Below, one piece after another: positions 955 to 32,363 of a stretch of 64,000 bases of DNA. Source of the stretch: Promethearchaeota archaeon (GTDB lineage Archaea; Asgardarchaeota; Lokiarchaeia; Sigyniarchaeales; SOKP01); NCBI GenBank assembly GCA_008080735.1, contig SHMW01000005.1:1-64000 (forward strand), read 5' to 3'. The notes beneath the pieces were generated by a model that was given only the letters and a program-made list of their open reading frames with translations, was not told where the DNA came from and ran no database searches. Made by a program: the position numbers and the translations under genes. Numbering within the stretch: the stretch's first letter is position 1; each line of letters begins with the position of its first letter.

Positions 955-1078
955 ATCCTCGTGGTGTAATAGGTGTTGATACCAGAACAGTTTCGGGTAA
1001 TGCCGCATGTTTCTGCGATTGAAACTTAGCACATTCGTTACAAAACGAAAGATTTAGGTTCGAATCCTAACGAGGATA
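955..1078 (+). ncRNA. tRNA-like RNA 1 with ~52-nt structured D-loop insertion and 6-nt anticodon loop
   Basis: Acceptor ATCCTCG/CGAGGAT; D-stem GTGT/GCAC; anticodon stem TTCGT/ACGAA with loop TACAAA; T-arm TTAGG-TTCGAAT-CCTAA; insertion ~975-1026. Confidence 0.8.
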
Positions 1079-1086
1079 TTCTCTAC

Positions 1087-1232
1087 GTCGCTATAGTTTA
1101 ATAGGATAAAATGAAGCAGTATAGACTTGGTAGTTCAAATATTAGAAACGGGCTATCTCTCTGTACACATTGGTTTTATTTTAAAACATCACAACAATTG
1201 TGAAGATATAGGTTCGAATCCTATTAGCGACA
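1087..1232 (+). ncRNA. tRNA-like RNA 2 with ~76-nt hairpin D-loop insertion and 5-nt anticodon loop
   Basis: Acceptor GTCGCTA/TAGCGAC; D-stem GTTT/AAAC; anticodon stem TCACA/TGTGA with loop ACAAT; T-arm ATAGG-TTCGAAT-CCTAT; insertion ~1106-1181. Confidence 0.8.
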
Positions 1233-1678: not shown

Positions 1679-1751
1679 GTTTAAATATTATACATAGGAA
1701 TAAAAATGTCTGAATTAAAGACTTACGAAAAAGAATAAAGGAAATATTAAT

Positions 1752-2231
1752 ATGAAAATTACAAAAAATGATCCAACATTAATTATAGTTTTACTTTCTT
1801 TAGCATGGATCGTAACTTTAGTTTTCTTTTTTGCAGAAGTAAAAAATAGAAAAGAAAAAGAAAGTATAGAACCTGCTAAAGTTAGTATTACCGTTACTAA
1901 AAGACCGGTGATTAAAAGAAAACCGATACGAATAAATAAATCAAATATAAATTACAGTACTATAAATGTCAATAAAGTCGGCGATTGGACACATGTTACA
2001 GTTAAAGCTACTAATAACACAAGATATACTTTGACAAGTTTACTTGTTGGCTGTGTGTTACATGATAAATATAACAAACCAAGTGCATATGAAGAATATG
2101 ATATTTTAATTAATAAAGATGGATTGTTACCAAGACAATCTGTTTACCATGAATTTTTGTTTAACAATACTAAGAATGTAGACACAACTGGTTTTATTAA
2201 ATATATAACTAACAATACTAGTATTAGATGA
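1752..2231 (+). CDS. membrane-anchored protein with FxLYD-like Ig-type domain
   Basis: N-terminal TM helix; TVKATNNT..L..VGCVLHDK..LLPRQS pattern. Confidence 0.55.
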   Translation: MKITKNDPTLIIVLLSLAWIVTLVFFFAEVKNRKEKESIEPAKVSITVTKRPVIKRKPIRINKSNINYSTINVNKVGDWTHVTVKATNNTRYTLTSLLVGCVLHDKYNKPSAYEEYDILINKDGLLPRQSVYHEFLFNNTKNVDTTGFIKYITNNTSIR

Positions 2232-2860
2232 TTACCTGTAATAGAAAAATTATTCCCAAATATGGTAAATTGTTTATTGGATGTAGTGCCGGGTTGGATA
2301 GTATATCTGTAGCACATTTCGCTAAGTATGTGTTAAAAAGAGACTTATGTTTATTACATTTTAACCATAAGCTACGTAGTCAAAACGATTTGATGGAACA
2401 GCGATGCGTTGAATTTGCTAAACATTTAAATGTTGATATTGAAATTCACCAACGAACAGAAAGCATAAATGCAAAAGATAGTTTAGAAGCTCAGTGTAGA
2501 GAATGGCGTTTGAAGTTTTTTAAAAATTTTGACAATGTTATTTTGGCACATCATCTTAATGATTGTGTTGAACAGTATTTGATTAACTGTTTAAAGGGTT
2601 GTCAATACAAGAACATTATTAATAGTGTTCAGAATTTTGGAAAACTAAATATTATTCGTCCGTTTCTACAAACCAAGAAGTTATCATTTCATAAATATAT
2701 TCTTAAAAATAATCTATCAAAATTTGTTGTTGAAGATGAAACTAATAAAAATAATAGACATTTCCGTAATTGGATTAGAAATGAAATAATAACCACAATC
2801 AATCAACGTAATTATGGTATTGAAAAGGTTGTTTTAAAGAAGATTATAGGTACTACATGA
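2228..2860 (+). CDS. tilS: tRNA(Ile)-lysidine synthetase, catalytic PP-loop domain only
   Basis: SAGLDS PP-loop, HFNHKLR, AHHLND, IRPFL, EDETN, RNWIR motifs. Confidence 0.85.
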   Translation: MITCNRKIIPKYGKLFIGCSAGLDSISVAHFAKYVLKRDLCLLHFNHKLRSQNDLMEQRCVEFAKHLNVDIEIHQRTESINAKDSLEAQCREWRLKFFKNFDNVILAHHLNDCVEQYLINCLKGCQYKNIINSVQNFGKLNIIRPFLQTKKLSFHKYILKNNLSKFVVEDETNKNNRHFRNWIRNEIITTINQRNYGIEKVVLKKIIGTT

Positions 2861-3189
2861 GACATCTTTCATTTTCTGATAACTGTTGTACAGTTGGATG
2901 GACATCAATTCACGCTTCAATGTCGTATGAAGATATGAAAGATTTGCTATCCAAATGTCCAAAAGGAAGATTTTCCAATACCTTTTTTTGTCGCACTTCC
3001 ATCTATACTATTGAACAATATGCTGAATATTTAAATGAACGTTGTTGCCACGGAACACACAACGATGTGCCAGAGCTTCCTTTTTATTTTACCTTCCCTT
3101 TGGACGATGACGGAATACGCTTACTACGCAACTTTGGCTATACGCCAGAACGCAGTAGATATTGGCATGAAAGGATTTGTATCAAATGA
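2857..3189 (+). CDS. hypothetical protein
   Basis: ORF with ATGA overlap. Confidence 0.55.
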   Translation: MRHLSFSDNCCTVGWTSIHASMSYEDMKDLLSKCPKGRFSNTFFCRTSIYTIEQYAEYLNERCCHGTHNDVPELPFYFTFPLDDDGIRLLRNFGYTPERSRYWHERICIK

Positions 3190-3506
3190 TTGTACAGGTA
3201 TTTCCAGGTATAAATTGTTGGTTGTCTAGACTTAGGATGCCAGAAGATCGTAATCGTAATTGGTATTTTGCGTTATTTCATGATAGTAAAAGATCATTCT
3301 ACTATGGCCCATTGCAAGCTGTGGGTACAACGAAGCCACTATTTAAATGTAAATCTTATAGAGAGATGATGTCCATATTGAAGACAGATATGAATATGGA
3401 TTTGATTAAATTATATAATGATAATAAAATAGAAAATGTTGAGAACCGTTACACCGAAGGTTCTGTGTTTTTTAAAGCAAGAGGATATGTCCCTGTAGTT
3501 CAATAG
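3186..3506 (+). CDS. hypothetical protein, paralog of 3571..3882
   Basis: Shared SYRE...LK..M...LIK motif; stop codon lies inside tRNA-Arg. Confidence 0.55.
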   Translation: MIVQVFPGINCWLSRLRMPEDRNRNWYFALFHDSKRSFYYGPLQAVGTTKPLFKCKSYREMMSILKTDMNMDLIKLYNDNKIENVENRYTEGSVFFKARGYVPVVQ

Positions 3507-3562
3507 GATAGAACAGCGGACTTCTAATCCGCAGGTTGTAGGTTCGAGTCCTACCAGGGATA
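3489..3562 (+). tRNA. tRNA-Arg(UCU)
   Basis: GTCCCTG/CAGGGAT acceptor; GCGGA-CTTCTAA-TCCGC anticodon arm; GGTTCGAGTCC T-arm; no encoded CCA. Confidence 0.95.
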
Positions 3563-3570
3563 TTAAAAAA

Positions 3571-7386: not shown

Positions 7387-7794
7387 ATGGAACAAGAAGA
7401 AAGTAGTATATTTGTAAAGTTTTATCTGCGAGATAAACGATCTATTCTTGATAACGATGGTGTTAAATATTATGAAATAGAACCAAGTATTATTTGGGTT
7501 AGTCAAAATTATGTAGGTTGTTTATCAGCAGATATACAACGTGCGTATATAGACTGTGTGCCAAAAAATGGTCTAAAAGTTTATATAATATGCCTAATGG
7601 TTAAACGTAAATCAGAATCATTATATAACTACCCTATTGTAACCGATGTGGTTACGGACCAATTGGTGGTAGATAAAATAGTTAAAGAATTGGAAAAACC
7701 AAGTATTCAAAGAACATATATGTCGCATAAAAAACGAGATAAGTTTTTAGCTATCAAAGTTTTTGAAGGTTTCATAGATGACAGAAAGTTATGA
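7387..7794 (+). CDS. hypothetical protein
   Basis: ORF with GAGG upstream. Confidence 0.6.
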   Translation: MEQEESSIFVKFYLRDKRSILDNDGVKYYEIEPSIIWVSQNYVGCLSADIQRAYIDCVPKNGLKVYIICLMVKRKSESLYNYPIVTDVVTDQLVVDKIVKELEKPSIQRTYMSHKKRDKFLAIKVFEGFIDDRKL

Positions 7795-8152
7795 TAATAA
7801 AATACTTGTGATTGAAGATTCTGATCAAAGAATATCTTGGTTTAAATCTAAAGGTATTGGTAATAAGTTTTGTAAAAATGTTAATCATGGTTTGAAGGAG
7901 ATCAAAAAGAAATACAATATTGTATTTATGGATTTCAATTTAAAAAATAAGCGATCTAGTTATAAAATCGCAAAGTATATTTCTGAACACAAGGAGATGT
8001 TTCAAAATGTAAATATAATTATTCACTCTAACGATCCTAAAGGAAGAAATCTATTGTTTAACTTGTTAAAACATTTAAATGTAAAAATTGTTCCCTATAG
8101 AATTTTACGCAACTCGCTACACACCTTAACTGGAGATTTTTATAATGGCTAA
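7778..8152 (+). CDS. stand-alone receiver-like domain (cyclic-phosphate-processing REC type)
   Basis: ILVIED..R, VFMDFNL, IIIHSN..G motifs. Confidence 0.65.
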   Translation: MTESYDNKILVIEDSDQRISWFKSKGIGNKFCKNVNHGLKEIKKKYNIVFMDFNLKNKRSSYKIAKYISEHKEMFQNVNIIIHSNDPKGRNLLFNLLKHLNVKIVPYRILRNSLHTLTGDFYNG

Positions 8153-8959: not shown

Positions 8960-8993
8960 AGACCCCGGAGTAAATTCCGGGGTCTTTTTTTTT
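8960..8993 (+). terminator. Rho-independent terminator
   Basis: agaccccggag-taaa-ttccggggtct followed by a T run. Confidence 0.9.
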
Positions 8994-9008: not shown

Positions 9009-9860
9009 ATGTTTATGAATAATTTATTGCAAATAGCAAAATGTGATAGAAAAAAATACAAATGGAAGGAATTTTTTAAGAAATGTAACGAGTCTCATAA
9101 AGAAATACGAGAAATAATTGGAGGACATACATCTTTCTGCTCTATTACTAACGAAGATTTTTCTTTATCAACTATTGAAAAAAACGCCTTGTCAATAGCC
9201 AGAAAAATTAGTTATAAATTACCTAAATATTTGTATTCTTACAAGATACAAATCGAACAGATGATTAAGCCCACTATTACTATAGATAACAGAACGTACA
9301 AAACAACCAAACATATTTCTCAGTATTGTATTAGAAATAATATTGACAAATCTATTATAAGTAAAGAGCTGGCAGAGCTTGGTAAACTTTGGGCAATAGC
9401 AAAATCTAGCAAGATCACAGCTAATTGTTGGATAAGCGTTCATCCAATTGCTTTTATTATGCTGGGTCACTATGATGTAGATTCCGCAAGCTGCTTTAGA
9501 AGCGATAGACATAATACCGCTTGTAAATATAAATTAGGCTTATTGAAAAATAGTTTTATTCTAGTAATTAGTCAGAACAGCAACAAAAGTATGTTTAAAA
9601 TAGAACAAAAGTCTAATATAGTTCGGATTAATGGAATACTTAAGAACGATTATGTTCATTATTTTAGTCCATATAGTGTAATTAGCACAAATCTTTTGCC
9701 AAGTGTGTTAAAAGAACTAACATCTAAAGTATTTGACAATATTAACAATTCAAGCATTAGTATTAGTAAATTTTATATGACTGGTGCTACCTATAGCCAT
9801 TATCCAACTTGGTCTTTTGGACCACATCAAATGGAAATAACAGAAAAGGTTGTTGTTTAA
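9009..9860 (+). CDS. SCFR-motif family protein, paralog 1
   Basis: ISVHPIAFIMLGHYDVDSASCFR. Confidence 0.7.
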   Translation: MFMNNLLQIAKCDRKKYKWKEFFKKCNESHKEIREIIGGHTSFCSITNEDFSLSTIEKNALSIARKISYKLPKYLYSYKIQIEQMIKPTITIDNRTYKTTKHISQYCIRNNIDKSIISKELAELGKLWAIAKSSKITANCWISVHPIAFIMLGHYDVDSASCFRSDRHNTACKYKLGLLKNSFILVISQNSNKSMFKIEQKSNIVRINGILKNDYVHYFSPYSVISTNLLPSVLKELTSKVFDNINNSSISISKFYMTGATYSHYPTWSFGPHQMEITEKVVV

Positions 9861-10900
9861 TGAAATACCAATTGAGTTATAAAGATTATATAAAATTTAT
9901 CAATAATTTTAGTCATGCTATATCTGGTGGATGGTATCCGGACTATTCCGATTGGGTTAATCGTGTTTTATGCAATCATCAGCATTTATATGATCGACTT
10001 GGCGGATTAACCAAGACTTTTAAAGTACAACTTGAAGAAGAATATATAGTTCCAGATGTGTCAACAATCGATAAGTATTATTGTATAATATCAAAAAATT
10101 TACCTCACTGTATCAAAGAGGGGAAATTACAAAGGAAAAATTTCTTATATCCTTTTCTCAGTAGTGAAAATGGATGTAAGTGGACAGGAAGGTTGACAAA
10201 ACGATTGGCCAACGGTTTACAACGAGAACCAAACATTTCGCCAAAAGCAGCTTTTGAAGTTCAACATGCTATATCTGAACTTGGCAAGATATTTAAAAAC
10301 CACCAAATAAGTAAAGATAAATGGTTCGATCTGACTATTTCGGCCGATCCAAGAATGTTTTTAACACTTGGTACGTATGGTGTTGATTCTGGCAGTTGTT
10401 TCCGACAATCTTCCTGTAATCCACACCACAAAAGTTATTTAGGAATAATGCCAAACAGTTTTATTGTAGTTTTATCGGAATCTATGGGCGAAAATTATTC
10501 TGTTCCATTCCCTAAAGATGTTTTAGGAAGGTGTTTCTGTTTGCCGTCTAGATATAATGATAACTTATTACACACTTTGAATTTTGTTAATATTTATGTT
10601 AGAAAAAACATGAATCAATCTATTATGATTGGTTCTATGAAAAAGATTTATGATATATTGAATAAAGATAAAAATATTGCTGTACACAAGAATTGTGTTA
10701 CCATTGAAAACCACACTATGTGGCTTTATCTTAATAACGAGCAATACACTTTGACACCAAAGGATTTCGTTTTTAAGAAAGTAGTTATAACTAATAAATA
10801 CGATTCTAATTTTCCTAATAAATTAATATATTGCGACAACTGTAGGTCGTACCAAGATAAAAAAATCGGATGTAATCAAAATAAAGAGTGCCGCAAATGA
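9860..10900 (+). CDS. SCFR-motif family protein, paralog 2 (C-terminal Cys cluster)
   Basis: ISADPRMFLTLGTYGVDSGSCFR. Confidence 0.7.
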   Translation: MKYQLSYKDYIKFINNFSHAISGGWYPDYSDWVNRVLCNHQHLYDRLGGLTKTFKVQLEEEYIVPDVSTIDKYYCIISKNLPHCIKEGKLQRKNFLYPFLSSENGCKWTGRLTKRLANGLQREPNISPKAAFEVQHAISELGKIFKNHQISKDKWFDLTISADPRMFLTLGTYGVDSGSCFRQSSCNPHHKSYLGIMPNSFIVVLSESMGENYSVPFPKDVLGRCFCLPSRYNDNLLHTLNFVNIYVRKNMNQSIMIGSMKKIYDILNKDKNIAVHKNCVTIENHTMWLYLNNEQYTLTPKDFVFKKVVITNKYDSNFPNKLIYCDNCRSYQDKKIGCNQNKECRK

Positions 10901-11757
10901 AAGACGTATTAATAGATTGGTTTTACTATACACCAAAAGATGTTTTAGAAAAATTTGCCAGCTTAGACAACTCTATATCGCACGGCGAGTATAAAGAAAG
11001 GTTTGTTTTTATTCCTGGATCTAGACAAGACCGTGTGTTATTAGTCGCACATGCTGATACTGTCTTTAATAGAATGAAACCAAAAATTAAGTTTGAAAAT
11101 GGCGTATTTTCATCTGAATTAAAAAATTGTGGAATTGGTGCCGACGATCGTGCAGGATGTGCAATAGTTTGGGCTTTAAAAGATTTGGGACATTCTATTT
11201 TTATAGCAGACGGTGAAGAATCAGGATGTGTAGCAAGTAATTATGCCTCGTCTATACCAGAAATCAACGACATGTTGCAAGACCATCAGTTCATGATAGA
11301 ATTTGACAGACGAGGTAGTAACGATTTGGTTTTTTATGATGTTGGTACTAAAGAATTTAAATCGTGGTGCCAGCATCAATTCGATGGATATAAAACAAAC
11401 ACTGGAAGTTTTACAGACATTTCTGTGTTAGCAAAGAAAATATGTGGTGTTAATATTAGTATTGGGTATTATTCTCAACATACATCTAGAGAGACACTGG
11501 TATACTCTCAATGGTTAAATACACTTGAAAAAAGTAGAAAGGTTCTGTCTCAAAAAAATATACCTAAGTTTGAACTTAAAAGGTATAAAGATTTTCAAAC
11601 AATAAATCAATACGATCTATCTGTTTCGATATATGAATTAAACACAACATACCAATGCGATTGTTGTAACAGCCTTATAGATAAGTATGAAATAGAAAAC
11701 AACAACAACAGATGTCCGTTATGTTATAATGAAATGGAATGTAAACATGGCAATTAA
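10897..11757 (+). CDS. M28/M20-like Zn metallopeptidase with C-terminal Zn ribbon, copy 1
   Basis: AHADTV, GIGADDRAG, EE, FDRRG, FTD, NISIGY..HT; C-terminal CxxC..CxxC. Confidence 0.8.
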   Translation: MKDVLIDWFYYTPKDVLEKFASLDNSISHGEYKERFVFIPGSRQDRVLLVAHADTVFNRMKPKIKFENGVFSSELKNCGIGADDRAGCAIVWALKDLGHSIFIADGEESGCVASNYASSIPEINDMLQDHQFMIEFDRRGSNDLVFYDVGTKEFKSWCQHQFDGYKTNTGSFTDISVLAKKICGVNISIGYYSQHTSRETLVYSQWLNTLEKSRKVLSQKNIPKFELKRYKDFQTINQYDLSVSIYELNTTYQCDCCNSLIDKYEIENNNNRCPLCYNEMECKHGN

Positions 11758-13117
11758 TTATGATGTTGACAAATTTAAAGAATGGTTTGGTGAGTTTATT
11801 GAAAGACATGGTGGATATGCACCAACCAATTTAACAAAGTGGCTTAATAATTGTGAAGAAAGCCATCAACATATTCGTTCAATTATTGGAGACTATATTT
11901 ATAGTGATAAATTTGAGATTGATAACTCTAAAATGAGTGAGAAAGTTCTTCTAGATCAAGACAAAATTTTACATGAAATAAAAAATAAATATTCTTCATT
12001 CTTGCCATTCGCTGATGTTTCTATTGACGAACTTAGATACTCAGAGATATCTCGTGGTACACATAACGTTATCAAGACATCTAAGCATTTGTTAAGATGT
12101 TTTAAAAAATATTATGGTCAAACAGATAAAAACTTTAGTTCGCTGATATCCCGTTTGGGCCAAACTTGGGTTGATAATGATGACGAAAGTCATGAAGTAC
12201 ATGTCACTATATCTACAACACCTAAATCTTTTGTATTACTAGGTCATTACGGTCCTGATCGTGATAGTTGTTTTAGACAGGGTTCTGATCATACTTCTGA
12301 TAAATTTGTATTAGGTCAAACTCAGGATACATTTATTGGAACAGTTGCAAAATATGACCCTGTTCGTGAGAGATATAGGAATGTTGCTAGAATGTTGGGA
12401 TACTTCGATCGTTTGAAAAAAATTTATACATTATTTAATTTGTATAAGCGACCCAATATAACTGAATCTTCTGCCTTGGAATGTATCAAACGAACAATAG
12501 AGTCATTGCCAAATCATAAAAAGTTGAAATTTATAGACGAAAGAAAAGTAGTACTATATAAAAATCCTGATAAATTCTACATTAATGAATACGGTGGATG
12601 GTTTTTATCATCAGATTTTTCAAACAGTTCATCGTCTTCTATCTCTATTCCATGGTACATCAAAGGAATAAAATCAGAAGAATGTCATGTTTGTGGTAAA
12701 GAATTACCATATAGGCGAATTGAAGAGTTGATAGTTGTTGATGATAAATATTGTTGTTCAGAATGTGCTCGAAAAGCTAATACATGTGAACATACTGGAC
12801 AACTAACTTTTAATGATTTGGTGGCGGTTTTCTTGGACATGCCACATCCTAATTTTATAAATGTTAGTGCTAGAGTTGCTCGTGAGTTTAAAGATAGATA
12901 CAGATTGGCAGAATGCCAAAACTGTGGTTCTTTACATAGGAAATCTACGACTAATTATTGTGATAATTGTGTAGACGACGTTATTGATTATTGTGACGAA
13001 TGTGGAGTTACCATTAATATTAAAAACGACAAACATTATTCAAATGGTACAGAAGTGTTGTGTTTGGATTGTTATAAAAATTATATTCCTGATGACATGG
13101 AGCTAATTAATGAGTAA
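11747..13117 (+). CDS. SCFR-motif family protein, paralog 3, with multiple C-terminal Zn fingers
   Basis: ISTTPKSFVLLGHYGPDRDSCFR plus about seven CxxC motifs. Confidence 0.7.
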   Translation: MAINYDVDKFKEWFGEFIERHGGYAPTNLTKWLNNCEESHQHIRSIIGDYIYSDKFEIDNSKMSEKVLLDQDKILHEIKNKYSSFLPFADVSIDELRYSEISRGTHNVIKTSKHLLRCFKKYYGQTDKNFSSLISRLGQTWVDNDDESHEVHVTISTTPKSFVLLGHYGPDRDSCFRQGSDHTSDKFVLGQTQDTFIGTVAKYDPVRERYRNVARMLGYFDRLKKIYTLFNLYKRPNITESSALECIKRTIESLPNHKKLKFIDERKVVLYKNPDKFYINEYGGWFLSSDFSNSSSSSISIPWYIKGIKSEECHVCGKELPYRRIEELIVVDDKYCCSECARKANTCEHTGQLTFNDLVAVFLDMPHPNFINVSARVAREFKDRYRLAECQNCGSLHRKSTTNYCDNCVDDVIDYCDECGVTINIKNDKHYSNGTEVLCLDCYKNYIPDDMELINE

Positions 13118-13991
13118 AATTGCCAAAGACATGATGTCGTGGATGACAATGAACCGTAACGATGTTATGAATAAGTTTCATAACATTAATGGTGCTTTTA
13201 GAGACTTTAAGGATGAAGAAAAAGATTTTGTATACATCGAAGGATCTAGAAAAGATCCTGTGTTATTGATTGCACACGCTGATACCGTTTGGGATAATAA
13301 TAAAAAGACGGTATCTCCCAAGTTAAAAAATGGAATTATTTATTCTGAAAACGACATTGGTATAGGTGCTGATGATCGTGCTGGATGCTGGATTCTTTGG
13401 CAGTTACGAAAGCTAGGGCATTCAATTCTCATAACATCTGGAGAAGAAAAGGGTTGTAAAACCAGTCGATGGATGGAAGCAGATGACGAATACTGGAAAG
13501 AAGAGTTGCAGAAGCATCAATTCGCCGTTCAATTTGACAGAAAGGGTTATAAAGATATAGTATGCTACGATGTTGGTACAGACGATTTTATGGATTATGT
13601 AGCTAATAAGTCGGGATATAAATCTGTAAGAGGAAGTAATACGGATGTCGCAGTTATTTGTGACGACATCTGCGGGGTGAATATTAGTACTGGTTATTAT
13701 GATGAGCATACTGAAAACGAACGACTGGTTGTTGATCATACATTGAATACAATGATAATGGCAAAACACTGGTTATCAGAAGATAAAATACCAAAATTCA
13801 AATTCAAATTCTCAGACAAACACAATCCCAAATATACTAATAACAATTCGTACACTGGATATACTGCTACAACTGGTAAGTACAAAAAATTTAGCGATCT
13901 GATAGAATGTCCCAGTTGTAAGAGCGATATAGAGTTTTCGTTATTAATAGAAAACATGTTAGAATGTCCTAGTTGTGGAAATATCTTATGA
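13110..13991 (+). CDS. M28/M20-like Zn metallopeptidase with C-terminal Zn ribbon, copy 2
   Basis: AHADTV, GIGADDRAG, EE, FDRKG, NISTGY..HT; CPSC..CPSC. Confidence 0.8.
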   Translation: MSKIAKDMMSWMTMNRNDVMNKFHNINGAFRDFKDEEKDFVYIEGSRKDPVLLIAHADTVWDNNKKTVSPKLKNGIIYSENDIGIGADDRAGCWILWQLRKLGHSILITSGEEKGCKTSRWMEADDEYWKEELQKHQFAVQFDRKGYKDIVCYDVGTDDFMDYVANKSGYKSVRGSNTDVAVICDDICGVNISTGYYDEHTENERLVVDHTLNTMIMAKHWLSEDKIPKFKFKFSDKHNPKYTNNNSYTGYTATTGKYKKFSDLIECPSCKSDIEFSLLIENMLECPSCGNIL

Positions 13992-14413
13992 TAAAAACAA
14001 CGTATATGGCTAGTAATAATACAAACATGGTATATACCAACCCTTATGTTTATAAGATAGAAAATGGTTTTAGATGGTCTATTTTCCCTGATGTAAATTC
14101 TAAATGTCTGATACTACAAATTGTTTCTAAAGAATCTAGCGAAACAGCACTGCATAAGTGGCTTAACGCTATTTTCAACAGATTAACCAACGAAAGTATT
14201 AACATCTATAATTTAATAAGCTTTAAGAAGGATGCAAATGGATGCTATTGCTACAAATGGATTATTGATTGCGATAAATCACCTATATCTCTTGGTGAAT
14301 TTAAGTATGATTCTATGATTGCTAAATATAATATTATCAATTGTAAAAACATTGTTCAGTTTCCCAATAATATTAGTCTTACCAAAGCAAAGAAACTTGC
14401 TAAAAAACTTTAA
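13973..14413 (+). CDS. hypothetical protein
   Basis: ORF. Confidence 0.55.
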   Translation: MWKYLMIKTTYMASNNTNMVYTNPYVYKIENGFRWSIFPDVNSKCLILQIVSKESSETALHKWLNAIFNRLTNESINIYNLISFKKDANGCYCYKWIIDCDKSPISLGEFKYDSMIAKYNIINCKNIVQFPNNISLTKAKKLAKKL

Positions 14414-14425
14414 TGGAGCTTTGTT

Positions 14426-15691
14426 ATGAACGTTGTCACAAGATTTGCACCAAGTCCAACTGGAAAAGGTTTGCATATAGGTGGTTTAAGAACCGCGTTA
14501 TATAATTACTTATGGGCTATGAAAAACAAAGGACAATTTTTAATAAGGGTGGATGATACAGACGAAAAACGATCTAATGAAGAATCTTTGGCCGATATTA
14601 TTGATTCATTGTCTTGGTGTGGCATTAAACCTAGTAAGAAAATCAATTACTTTCAGTCTAAGAAAAAGGAAAGCTATCGTTTTTACGCCAATGCACTTGT
14701 GAATATGAACAAAGCTTATGTAGAAAATGGCTGTGTTAAGCTATCGGTCAAAAAACTTATTGAAAACGAGATTTACGATTCGTGTTTTGATATCATAGAT
14801 GGGGTACTTGGCCCTGTTAGGTTTAATAAAAACCAAATAGAAGACTTTGTTATATTAAAACAAGATGGAAATGCCACTTATAATTTTGCTACGGTATTAG
14901 ATGATAAATTTATGAATGTTAATTATGTTATGCGTGGTCAAGAACACTTGATAAATACTGTAAAACAAAAAATACTACATGTATGTTTGAAGATGGAGCC
15001 GCCAAACTACATACACATGCCTGTAATACTTAATCAAGATGGTTCAAAAATGAGCAAACGTCAAGAGTCAGACATGATTAATGTATCTGACTTTAGAAAA
15101 GCTGGTTATTTACCAGAAGCTATTGTGCATTTTGTTTCTTTGTTGGGGTGGACTCCAAAGAATAACAAGCCATTGTTAAAGCTAAGCGATATGGTTGAAC
15201 AATTTGATTTTAGAAAAATTCGAAAGACCAATCCAAGATTTGACATTAAACAATTAGGTAAAATAAACAAAAGATGGATGTCTAACGAGACTGTGATTAG
15301 TATTAAATATAAAATTAAAAAAACACTTGGTGAAATAAATCATGATAAGATTGATATTATTTATCCACATGTTATAAACAAATGCAAAACCATTAATGAT
15401 TTTATAGAAAATTATAAATCTGTTAATATAAATCAAAAGCCCGTTATCAAAGACGAAAGTTCAAGAAAAGAGCTTTCTAACTTAGGACAGTTATTAGCGA
15501 CAATAGATATGTGGGATCGTGAAAATATTATAGAAGTCATTAAGTCGTATAGTGAATTATCTAATAGGAGTATGTTCGATATTGCAAACAATATTCGTAA
15601 AAATTTAACACATACTAAATATATACCTCCTATTGATGTTTTTCTTTGTGCTTTAGGTCGTCAACAGTCTTTAAATCTATTAAAGGTATAA
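14426..15691 (+). CDS. gltX: glutamyl-tRNA synthetase
   Basis: RFAPSPTG, HIGG, RVDDTD, TYNFA, RGQEH, KMSKR, LLGW and a C-terminal helical domain. Confidence 0.9.
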   Translation: MNVVTRFAPSPTGKGLHIGGLRTALYNYLWAMKNKGQFLIRVDDTDEKRSNEESLADIIDSLSWCGIKPSKKINYFQSKKKESYRFYANALVNMNKAYVENGCVKLSVKKLIENEIYDSCFDIIDGVLGPVRFNKNQIEDFVILKQDGNATYNFATVLDDKFMNVNYVMRGQEHLINTVKQKILHVCLKMEPPNYIHMPVILNQDGSKMSKRQESDMINVSDFRKAGYLPEAIVHFVSLLGWTPKNNKPLLKLSDMVEQFDFRKIRKTNPRFDIKQLGKINKRWMSNETVISIKYKIKKTLGEINHDKIDIIYPHVINKCKTINDFIENYKSVNINQKPVIKDESSRKELSNLGQLLATIDMWDRENIIEVIKSYSELSNRSMFDIANNIRKNLTHTKYIPPIDVFLCALGRQQSLNLLKV

Positions 15692-15694
15692 TAT

Positions 15695-16726
15695 ATGCAA
15701 AACGCTTTAACATTTGATGATGTCTCACTTGTTCCTCAATATAGTGAAATATCAACTAGATCTGAATGTTGTATAAAAACTAATCTGACAAAAAATATAC
15801 AACTTAATAGTCCAATAGTATCTTCACCAATGGATACTGTGACAGAAGTAGACATGGCTACTGCTATCGCAGAACAAGGTGGAATCGGTTTTATTCACAG
15901 GTTTGTTAGTCCATCAGTGCAATCTGAAATGGTGCGTAATGTTTCAGACAAAGGATTGTTGGTCGGTGCTGCAATAGGTGTAAGAGATTATGCAAAGCGT
16001 ATAGACTTATTGGTTAAAGCTGGTATATCTGTTTTAATGATTGATGTGGCACATGGACATCATAAAGCCGTTGGAGATACAATAAGTAGCATAAAAAATC
16101 TCTATAATGTTGATGTAATTGCCGGAAATGTCTGCACTTATGACGGATCAAGATATATTATAGATTCTGGTGCAGATTGTATTAGATGCGGCGTTGGATC
16201 TGGACACAGTTGTTCAACAAGACAGAAGGCCGCTGTTGGTGTTCCACAACTGACAGCAATAAGCAATGCTTATAAAGCCAAGATAGATTCTAAAAGTGAA
16301 CTGTGCATAATGGCAGACGGAGGTGTTAGATATCCAGCCGACGTAGCAAAAGCAATAGCGTTTGGAGCTGATACAGTAATGTTGGGATACCTGCTATCTG
16401 GAACAGACGAATCTCCTGGAGATTTTCACACCGGAAATAACTGGCCTGTTTATGATAAATATAAAATATATAGAGGAAGTGCGTCTGTTGACAGCAAGAC
16501 TGCTAGAAATGAATCAAGTCATGTAGAGGGTGTTTCGATGATGGTTCCACACAAAGGTAGTGCTATTGATATTATTAATGGAATTCATGATGGATTAAGA
16601 TCATGCTTATCTTATATGGGATTCAAAAAGATTTCTGATTTTAGAAACAAACCTTGGTCATATTGTCAAACAACATATTCTGGACAAATAGAAGCTACGC
16701 CTTATGGGTTAAACAAATGTACATAA
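15695..16726 (+). CDS. IMP dehydrogenase/GMP reductase family enzyme without CBS domain; GMP-reductase-like flap
   Basis: TFDDV, SSPMDTVT, IDVAHGH, AGNV, GVGSGHSCSTR (catalytic Cys), ADGG, YRGSAS. Confidence 0.88.
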   Translation: MQNALTFDDVSLVPQYSEISTRSECCIKTNLTKNIQLNSPIVSSPMDTVTEVDMATAIAEQGGIGFIHRFVSPSVQSEMVRNVSDKGLLVGAAIGVRDYAKRIDLLVKAGISVLMIDVAHGHHKAVGDTISSIKNLYNVDVIAGNVCTYDGSRYIIDSGADCIRCGVGSGHSCSTRQKAAVGVPQLTAISNAYKAKIDSKSELCIMADGGVRYPADVAKAIAFGADTVMLGYLLSGTDESPGDFHTGNNWPVYDKYKIYRGSASVDSKTARNESSHVEGVSMMVPHKGSAIDIINGIHDGLRSCLSYMGFKKISDFRNKPWSYCQTTYSGQIEATPYGLNKCT

Positions 16727-32260: not shown

Positions 32261-32264
32261 TTTT

Positions 32265-32337
32265 AACGATGTAGATCAACTGGCAGATCACTTGGCTTTG
32301 AACCAAGAGGTTGCAGGTTCGAATCCTGCCATCGTTG
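32265..32337 (+). tRNA. tRNA-Gln(UUG)
   Basis: AACGATG/CATCGTT acceptor; GATC D-stem; CTTGG-CTTTGAA-CCAAG; GCAGG-TTCGAAT-CCTGC. Confidence 0.93.
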
Positions 32338-32363
32338 GTTAAATATATGGAGATAATACATTA

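Follow-up and report, generated by a model that had tools for sequence, protein, structure and literature searches.

The stretch of DNA analysed here, referred to as the window, comprises 64,000 nucleotides (nt) at positions 1 to 64,000 of contig SHMW01000005.1 (assembly GCA_008080735.1, Promethearchaeota archaeon), which is contig C5 of a 4.1-Mb bin of 140 contigs. With a GC content of about 0.32 the window is AT-rich, and nearly all of its coding sequence lies on the + strand, as in a large phage. Directly downstream of a strong intrinsic terminator, a large uncultured phage here carries an array in which three paralogs of a divergent protein family, designated SCFR, are interleaved with two paralogous zinc peptidases, PEP1 and PEP2. 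The present analysis concerns this SCFR-PEP pairing, its distribution among phages and its possible function.

Organisation of the array

A sequence-only reading of the same DNA had given the order terminator-SCFR1-SCFR2-PEP1-SCFR3-PEP2, with all genes translationally coupled. Both points were confirmed by the coordinates of the open reading frames (ORFs), by the 11-bp-stem terminator directly upstream and by the overlap of stops and starts at all four junctions (Table 1): SCFR1 and SCFR2 share a TAATG (1-nt overlap), SCFR2 and PEP1 an ATGA (4 nt), PEP1 and SCFR3 overlap by 11 or 29 nt depending on the start used, and SCFR3 and PEP2 by 8 nt. The end that had been set at 13991 proved too early, as the unit continues through an ORF of 141 amino acids (aa) into a gene for glutamyl-tRNA synthetase (GluRS). 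No strong terminator was found in the interval between array and GluRS, which apparently belongs to the same transcription unit. The synthetase is assigned to the bacterial type by its TIGR00464 equivalog score and its HIGH/KMSKS-type motifs: HIGG and KMSKR are visible in the translation, Pfam tRNA-synt_1c (E 3e-70) and Anticodon_2 are matched, and GGAG precedes the start. A fourth SCFR paralog lies about 5 kb downstream, and the whole bin contains only two PEP copies, PEP1 and PEP2.

Table 1 Features of the window, the array and its dispersed paralog first; E-values for the SCFR proteins are from family hidden Markov model (HMM) or profile searches
Feature	Position	Strand	Remarks
SCFR1, 283 aa	9009..9860	+	Short form, core only, without zinc ribbon; family HMM E 3e-63
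SCFR2, 346 aa	9860..10900	+	Core plus degenerate C-terminal Cys knuckle; HMM E 7e-70; motif residues kept
PEP1	10897..11757	+	Predicted lid-less MH-clan (M28/M20-like) di-zinc peptidase with C-terminal zinc ribbon
SCFR3, 462 aa	11729 (or ATG 11747)..13117	+	Long form; HMM E 2e-86; core = residues 1-300
PEP2	13110..13991	+	Second peptidase paralog with zinc ribbon; conserved partner of SCFR3-type proteins
SCFR4, 266 aa	18832..19632	+	Dispersed fourth paralog, no peptidase adjacent; profile match E 6e-11 and E 2e-20
Intrinsic terminator	8960..8985	+	11-pair stem (7 G-C), 4-nt loop, T-run; ends the UP gene, array directly 3'
UP, 262 aa	8145..8933	+	KGAKGAKGAKG tract; conserved neighbour 5' of the array
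141-aa ORF	13988..14413	+	Coupled to PEP2 by ATGA at 13988-13991; ends 12 nt before GluRS
GluRS	14426..15691	+	TIGR00464 gltX_bact 323 bits against a cut-off of 290
Oversized tRNA-shaped RNAs	955..1232	+	Rfam tRNA model at 1087-1232, one 146-nt match, 46 bits

Conservation of the SCFR family

Pairwise identity among SCFR1, SCFR2 and SCFR3 is 21-32%, and the relation is significant (BLASTP E 5e-14, 1.5e-13 and 7e-10). An exhaustive profile search recovered 432 representative clusters at E<=1e-3, 233 of them at E<=1e-30. The ordered sequence blocks that had been described in these very divergent proteins are real. Conservation was read from a family alignment of 156 sequences, in SCFR3 numbering. 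The Cys that had been called invariant, C181, is present in 100% of the sequences; D177, S180, F168, G172 and R221 reach 99%, N237 and Y239 97%, G224 96%, K192 94%, H46 93%, N286 92%, and R50 and K119 90%. An invariant Cys together with a set of polar residues conserved at 90% or more (H46, R50, K119, D177, S180, K192, R221, N237, Y239 and N286) gives the family an enzyme-like pattern. All four paralogs of the window, including the dispersed SCFR4, retain the motif D-x-x-S-C-F-R as well as K192, R221 and Y239; SCFR1 additionally keeps H46 and R50 along with D177, S180 and C181, and it groups in the tree with short paralogs that stand first in their arrays.

Two length classes are found: some members consist of a core of about 300 aa, and others reach about 450 aa through added Cys-rich ribbons. 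As judged from their cysteine motifs, the long forms add one to three putative zinc ribbons: SCFR3 contains six CxxC motifs (at residues 319, 343, 396, 411, 422 and 445), consistent with three ribbons, SCFR2 has one degenerate ribbon and SCFR1 none. The proposal of C-terminal zinc ribbons on SCFR3 and on both peptidases is consistent with these motifs, each peptidase carrying one CxxC...CxxC at its C-terminus.

Sequence searches of the window SCFR proteins against Pfam, PHROG, NCBIfam, PADLOC and the PDB returned nothing meaningful, and in these family searches SCFR did not map to any characterised unrelated family, which the sequence-only reading had named as an outcome that would speak against it. 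When 135 SCFR members were scanned singly against Pfam, 84 families were matched at E<=1, and each of the 25 listed matched only one or two members. Searches of cultured phage records with SCFR3 (megablast, tblastn) gave no match, and cultured relatives were reached only via the peptidase. Pattern-based locus scans, for which the 135-sequence alignment is too diverse, yielded one locus in IMG/VR and three in metagenomes.

The PEP peptidases

PEP1 and PEP2 share 40% identity (E 1e-68), and both belong to phrog_4191 (E 2e-28 and 1e-27, respectively). The sequence-only reading had stated that both peptidases keep every metal ligand, and this stands: H-x-D, D-D, E-E, D and H are found in both proteins and are invariant in 13 homologs. 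In PEP2 numbering these are H56, D58, D88/D89, E112/E113, D143 and H200, which align with the PepT-like enzyme 3gb0, so that the co-catalytic ligands and the general-base Glu of the MH-clan metallopeptidases are all kept. On the strength of these residues both peptidases are predicted to be active.

The PEP profile matched PepT-like M20 structures in two blocks (3gb0, E 4e-11), and the M20 lid/dimerisation domain is missing, profile positions 124-170 standing in place of 3gb0 residues 155-318. A two-block match without lid domain indicates a single-domain MH-clan enzyme of M28-like architecture. Against Pfam M28 (PF04389, cut-off 21.3) PEP1 reached 22.6 bits and PEP2 gave no match at E<=1, while the PEP homologs of phages H1, VP93 and Pasto scored 17.7-20.3 bits, below the cut-off, and that of phage SecTim467 scored 41.9 bits and also passed the M42 and M20 thresholds. 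The PepT-like model TIGR01883 matched PEP1 at E 1e-8, with scores of 34-35 bits against a cut-off of 274, which places the peptidases outside the M20 PepT-like family proper. In sum, PEP appears to be a lid-less di-zinc exopeptidase or amidohydrolase of the M28/M20 clan. Like the known MH-clan peptidases (PepT-like M20 enzymes 3gb0 and 3rza, M28, M42), PEP has H-x-D, a bridging D, E-E, D and H; unlike M20 enzymes it has no lid/dimerisation domain, it additionally carries a variable low-complexity linker and the C-terminal zinc ribbon, and the family is phage-specific (phrog_4191).

Co-occurrence and co-inheritance of the two gene types

Loci carrying SCFR genes were fetched for comparison (the window, L001, L002 and L007 to L013), and a PEP gene lies directly beside an SCFR gene in 10 of 10. 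The two gene types thus also occur together in other genomes, a point on which the sequence-only reading had let its case depend, with a cultured Enterococcus phage as a further instance. The gene order reads S-P-S-P-S-P-S (S, SCFR; P, PEP) in L001 and L012 and S-S-S-P-S-P in L002. A UP homolog precedes the array in six loci (window, L001, L002, L007, L008 and L012); UP may belong to the module, since its homologs lie directly upstream of the array in the five loci other than the window, though here the terminator intervenes.

FastTree trees resolved three SCFR clades (SA, SB, SC) and three PEP groups (PA, PB, PC) that are paired by position. Behind an SB-clade SCFR stands a PB-clade PEP in 6 of 6 loci, PB always following SB; SA is followed by PA in 5 of 6, the outlier being SCFR2 of the window, and a short SC by a ribbon-less PC in two. 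This positional pairing of clades indicates that the SCFR-PEP pairs are of long standing and were inherited together, and it speaks for a one-to-one functional coupling. We consider it highly probable that the array represents a conserved module made up of a novel Cys-loop GNAT-like protein and a lid-less zinc exopeptidase. SCFR copies exceed PEP copies overall, with SCFR1, SCFR4 and S6/S7 of L007 being free of a peptidase. In G001, a complete 172-kb relative, every detected SCFR copy lies in one cluster. The first of these copies (C1:140348-141226, corresponding to about 3635-4513 of L007) contains one in-frame TAG within the match, and a 67-nt match to the tRNA model (29 bits) is located just before it, at 140256-140322.

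Relatives in cultured phages

PEP homologs were found in 126 cultured or assembled phage records, and several of these lie beside proteins with an SCFR-like loop. In Enterococcus phage H1 the genes H1_5, H1_6 (PEP) and H1_7 reproduce the alternation of SC-family (SCFR-like) protein, peptidase and SC-family protein seen in the window, both flanking proteins being members of phrog_18912; the differences are a Gram-positive host, the lack of a GluRS and the replacement of D177 and S180 in H1_7. The latter protein matches the SCFR profile (hmmsearch E 3e-8; hhalign E 5.5e-5 over 226 columns), has a terminal zinc ribbon and keeps the Cys, Arg and Tyr, with TCY for SCF, D177 changed to G and S180 to T. 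H1_5 is weaker (E 4.5e-4 as a single sequence, 0.004 for its family) and its loop reads SSCH.

In four genera of the Autographiviridae, represented by Vibrio phage VP93, Rhizobium phage Pasto, Klebsiella phage SU503 and Pectobacterium phage PPWS1, the peptidase adjoins a member of a family with an SSCM loop (SCM), as it also does in Cellulophaga phage Calle_1 and in a 634-kb uncultured phage. Most SCM proteins carry CxxC pairs after the core. Family-to-family hhalign of SCM with SCFR gave E 0.002-0.003 over 93-107 columns, which is marginal; the motifs are in register throughout (K-x-x-K, L-G-x-x-W, the pre-loop strand, S-C, K/R-Y, a-R-x-x-G/W and Y), and SCM is probably homologous to SCFR on these grounds. 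Single-sequence hhalign against SCFR was negative for VP93 gp6, Pasto_004, SecTim467_175 and the protein of the 634-kb phage. The pairs KP34p10/KP34p11 and PhiM1_09/PhiM1_10 (Autographiviridae) show the same arrangement, with a PEP homolog directly after an SSCM protein of 516-713 aa that has C-terminal CxxC pairs. Compared with the window, their motif order is colinear with SCFR, they form a single pair and not an array, and no GluRS is present; the homology of SCM is suggestive. Among the genes conserved before the primase in KP34-like and PhiM1-like phages are that of the peptidase and the one upstream of it, which has no assigned function (PMC4411677, PMC6115819), and in PhiM1-like phages the region before the primase has been defined as the early-gene region (PMC6115819).

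Brevibacillus phage SecTim467 (L015) encodes on the - strand, at 1704-3104, a protein of 466 aa that has a TSCQ loop and contains six CxxC (DnaJ-like CxxCxGxG); its gene is divergently oriented to that of the PEP homolog, at a distance of 1.7 kb. A weak BFVD match to the SCFR model was obtained for this protein (E 0.08, probability 0.6), and no sequence-profile match to SCFR.

Predicted fold of the SCFR core

AlphaFold2 with the 135-sequence alignment produced a model of SCFR3 residues 1-300 with a predicted local distance difference test score of 89.5 and a predicted template-modelling score of 0.82. Foldseek against the PDB gave no match at E<=1e-3 for either SCFR model. In a second structural look all 50 rows were GNATs, each match weak, and the ESM Atlas gave weak GNAT rows and otherwise only unnamed viral clusters; the significant structural relatives in BFVD are uncharacterised large-phage proteins, including those of Dickeya phage JA29 and Agrobacterium phage Atu_ph07. 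A helical hairpin at residues 67-153 matched generic helix bundles only. The fold was judged against the GNAT order beta1-alpha1-alpha2-beta2-beta3-beta4-alpha3-beta5-alpha4-beta6 in a mixed sheet with a V-opening between beta4 and beta5. A GNAT-like topology of the core is the best reading and a likely one, given the uniformity of the structural matches and the order of secondary structure over residues 155-294, no score being sufficient alone. According to the model, the core of about 300 aa would consist of an N-terminal helical domain followed by a GNAT-like alpha/beta domain, in which the D-x-x-S-C-F loop would occupy the place of the GNAT alpha1-alpha2 substrate loop, with R221 on beta3 and N237/Y239 where beta4 ends, close to the canonical acyl site of GNATs.

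The sequence-only reading had offered a PcfJ/GNAT-like fold as a guess; the GNAT half was a fair one, all structural matches being GNATs though weak, and the PcfJ half found no support. PcfJ (PF14284) matched neither the window proteins nor appeared among the matches listed for the 135 SCFR members, and hhalign of PcfJ from plasmid pCF10, which itself scores 149 bits, against the SCFR profile was negative (E 0.11 over 9 columns). At a 25-bit criterion PF14284 was likewise without a match in genomes G000 and G001 and in phages H1 and SecTim467. A search of 301 genomes from the phylum of the window did not detect PF14284 either, but this carries no weight, as the control genomes also gave no match. 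A PcfJ-like row for SCFR in BFVD had a probability of 0.09, and the SCFR neighbours in a language-model search included a cluster of which 38% is PcfJ (score 0.87), which we treat as a lead only. PcfJ resembles SCFR in being a mobile-element protein in which beta-strands follow a conserved x-C-x-G loop (HCVG); HMM and hhalign comparisons of the two are negative. On pCF10 (L020, 15874-17984) PcfJ is translationally adjacent to an annotated AcrIIA9-family Cas9 inhibitor gene, and PcfJ thus sits in an anti-defence neighbourhood.

Proposed function and alternative explanations

We tentatively propose, as a possibility short of an even chance, that SCFR and PEP form a coupled acyl- or aminoacyl-transferase and exopeptidase (hydrolase) acting on shared macromolecular substrates, probably those of the host. 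The array would then comprise several copies of a conserved phage two-enzyme module, in which SCFR would move an acyl or aminoacyl group to an amine of a target protein or peptide, perhaps by way of a Cys-thioester, and the cognate PEP would hydrolyse a terminal amide on the target of its SCFR, either taking off the added group or exposing an acceptor end. Together, the two enzymes may alter the ends of host (or phage) proteins while the phage takes over the cell, and the paralogous pairs SA-PA, SB-PB and SC-PC may serve different targets. The sequence-only interpretation, in which the Cys enzyme adds a tag that the peptidase removes or trims, is thus supported in part, as regards the conserved module, the invariant Cys and the intact peptidase site; PEP may reverse the action of SCFR, or it may work on the shared substrate earlier or later than SCFR. 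Apparent co-transcription of the module with a phage GluRS makes glutamyl-tRNA a candidate donor in this phage clade. No GluRS gene was found in phages H1, SecTim467, VP93 and Pasto, and glutamyl-tRNA is for this reason kept as a candidate for the present clade only; cultured phages that have the pair or its probable relatives and no GluRS indicate that the module does not need a phage GluRS.

Several observations count against the proposed transferase and exopeptidase function. None of the GNAT Pfam models (Acetyltransf_1/3/7/10, FemAB, Leu_Phe_trans, ATE) is present among the 25 families listed for the SCFR members, and the CoA pyrophosphate motif Q/R-x-x-G-x-G/A between beta4 and alpha3 is not conserved: the SCFR consensus after Y239 is x6-E-G-x, where only G247 is conserved (75%). 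GNATs that depend on tRNA likewise do not have this pyrophosphate loop. C181 could be a metal ligand or a purely structural residue, the link between SCFR and SCM is statistically marginal, and no SC-family neighbour was detectable within 3.5 kb of PEP in Bacillus phage vB_BcoS-136, Thermus phage P23-45 and Lactococcus phage AM6.

Set beside the GNAT transferases (HAT1, AAC(3), RimI, NatD; FemX, MprF/L-PGS, Aat/Ate1), SCFR thus differs in having neither a GNAT Pfam match, among the families listed, nor the CoA motif, and in its invariant Cys loop, its C-terminal zinc ribbons, its obligatory peptidase neighbour and a large helical domain at the N-terminus, in which H46, R50 and K119 are conserved. 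The FemXAB enzymes, which use non-proteinogenic tRNA-Gly, and the Aat/Bpt N-degron transferases offer a conceptual likeness, the structural similarity of SCFR being weak. These GNAT-fold enzymes take an amino acid from an aminoacyl-tRNA, either dedicated or ordinary, and attach it to the end of a peptide, acting in series with peptidases or jointly with them; we know of no phage systems of this kind.

A more specific version of the transferase idea would be a four-part, ribosome-independent glutamyl transfer in which GluRS charges non-decoding mimics of tRNA-Glu, a Fem/Aat/MprF-like SCFR moves the Glu and PEP trims or removes it. The M28/M42 clan does include glutamate-specific exopeptidases, and in L002 and L007, too, GluRS and the array are no more than 10 kb apart. 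Such proximity is weak evidence, as large phages cluster translation genes anyway; furthermore, the gene is missing in phages H1, VP93 and Pasto and in the PEP-bearing SecTim467, L001 has no GluRS within 5.6 kb downstream of its array, and nothing points to RNA binding by SCFR, all of which makes this scheme unlikely. A closely related form, translation-independent aminoacylation in which the phage GluRS loads Glu on non-decoding tRNA-Glu look-alikes, the SCFR paralogs, as a new Cys-dependent GNAT/Fem-like branch, carry it to different targets of host or phage, each cognate PEP trims or reverses the mark and one-pair phages draw on host aminoacyl-tRNA, is in our view improbable. As to the RNAs themselves, ARAGORN called only a tRNA-Arg (3488-3563) and a tRNA-Gln (32264-32338) in the window and did not call the sequence at 1087-1232 a tRNA. 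The relative G001 contains 15 matches to the tRNA model, two of them 135-145 nt long. In L001 the array stands between two upstream tRNA genes (233-676) and eleven downstream (12332-15716) and is thus embedded in a tRNA island. In Cellulophaga phage Calle_1 (L023, 114-2061), a tRNA-Glu and a phage transfer-messenger RNA are located within 3 kb upstream of the PEP/SCM-family pair; the tRNA-Glu is annotated at 166-237, and the Rfam tRNA match spans 114-185.

Alternatively, the pair could belong to a small-molecule pathway in which SCFR N-acylates an amino-acid-like metabolite, thereby protecting or activating it, and PEP later deacylates it, the several pairs handling successive or alternative intermediates of a metabolite made by the phage. 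The nearest solved relatives of PEP are PepT-like M20 enzymes, an IMPDH/GMP-reductase-like ORF (15695-16726) lies close by together with GluRS, and the combination of a GNAT-like protein with an MH-clan amidohydrolase matches a classic acylation/deacylation pairing, as in ArgA/ArgE, DapD/DapE and LysX/LysK. However, both partners carry zinc ribbons, SCFR as many as three, which points to docking on a macromolecule and away from small-molecule chemistry, and no further pathway enzymes are conserved beside the pair across the loci. In addition, the peptidase of the Autographiviridae lies in the pre-primase region, which is the early-gene region in PhiM1-like phages (PMC6115819), and we regard a metabolic role as quite unlikely. 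It is also conceivable, with a low probability, that SCFR is not a transferase at all and instead serves as a regulator, chaperone, inhibitor or substrate of PEP in the style of a zymogen or toxin-antidote pair, or forms some other Cys/His/Asp metal-binding or hydrolase domain, leaving PEP as the sole effector. The fold assignment is weak, the invariant H46, D177 and C181 could together bind a metal or act as a hydrolase triad, and the tight one-to-one co-inheritance would fit a specific inhibitor-enzyme pair as well. An excess of SCFR over PEP copies, some of them without a peptidase, would be odd for a dedicated inhibitor, though, and more than ten conserved polar residues across the core resemble an active site together with a substrate site.

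The SCFR-PEP module appears to be undescribed, widespread and testable in culturable phages. SCFR comprises several hundred clusters and is without a Pfam or PHROG model, solved relative or literature. Its tie to a peptidase holds in phage groups of very different genome size, the smallest being 43-kb T7-like podoviruses and the largest phages of 170 to over 600 kb. A literature search found no functional study of PcfJ, of a combination of tRNA-like RNA, GluRS and GNAT, or of the KP34 peptidase. The peptidase, and probably its partner too, is conserved ahead of the primase in KP34-like phages of Klebsiella and PhiM1-like phages of Pectobacterium; as such phages find use, or are under consideration, in therapy and biocontrol, the module would be part of their early action on the cell. 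What has been annotated as a hypothetical protein plus a putative peptidase thereby becomes a defined two-enzyme unit with a candidate active site (Cys loop, Arg, Asn/Tyr), and, should the link to glutamyl-tRNA be true, it would represent a new non-ribosomal use of aminoacyl-tRNA.

Other genes around the array

Searches of Pfam, PHROGs, NCBIfam and PADLOC returned no match for UP or for the 141-aa ORF, and none of eight proteins matched a PADLOC anti-phage defence model at E<=0.01. Two genes upstream of the array, at 7778-8152, lies a gene for a 124-aa protein with a cREC_REC domain (PF20274, E 4e-8), a cyclic-phosphate-processing receiver domain, and the segment 6265-6870 encodes a 201-aa protein of the alpha/beta-hydrolase fold (Abhydrolase_1, E 1e-11).

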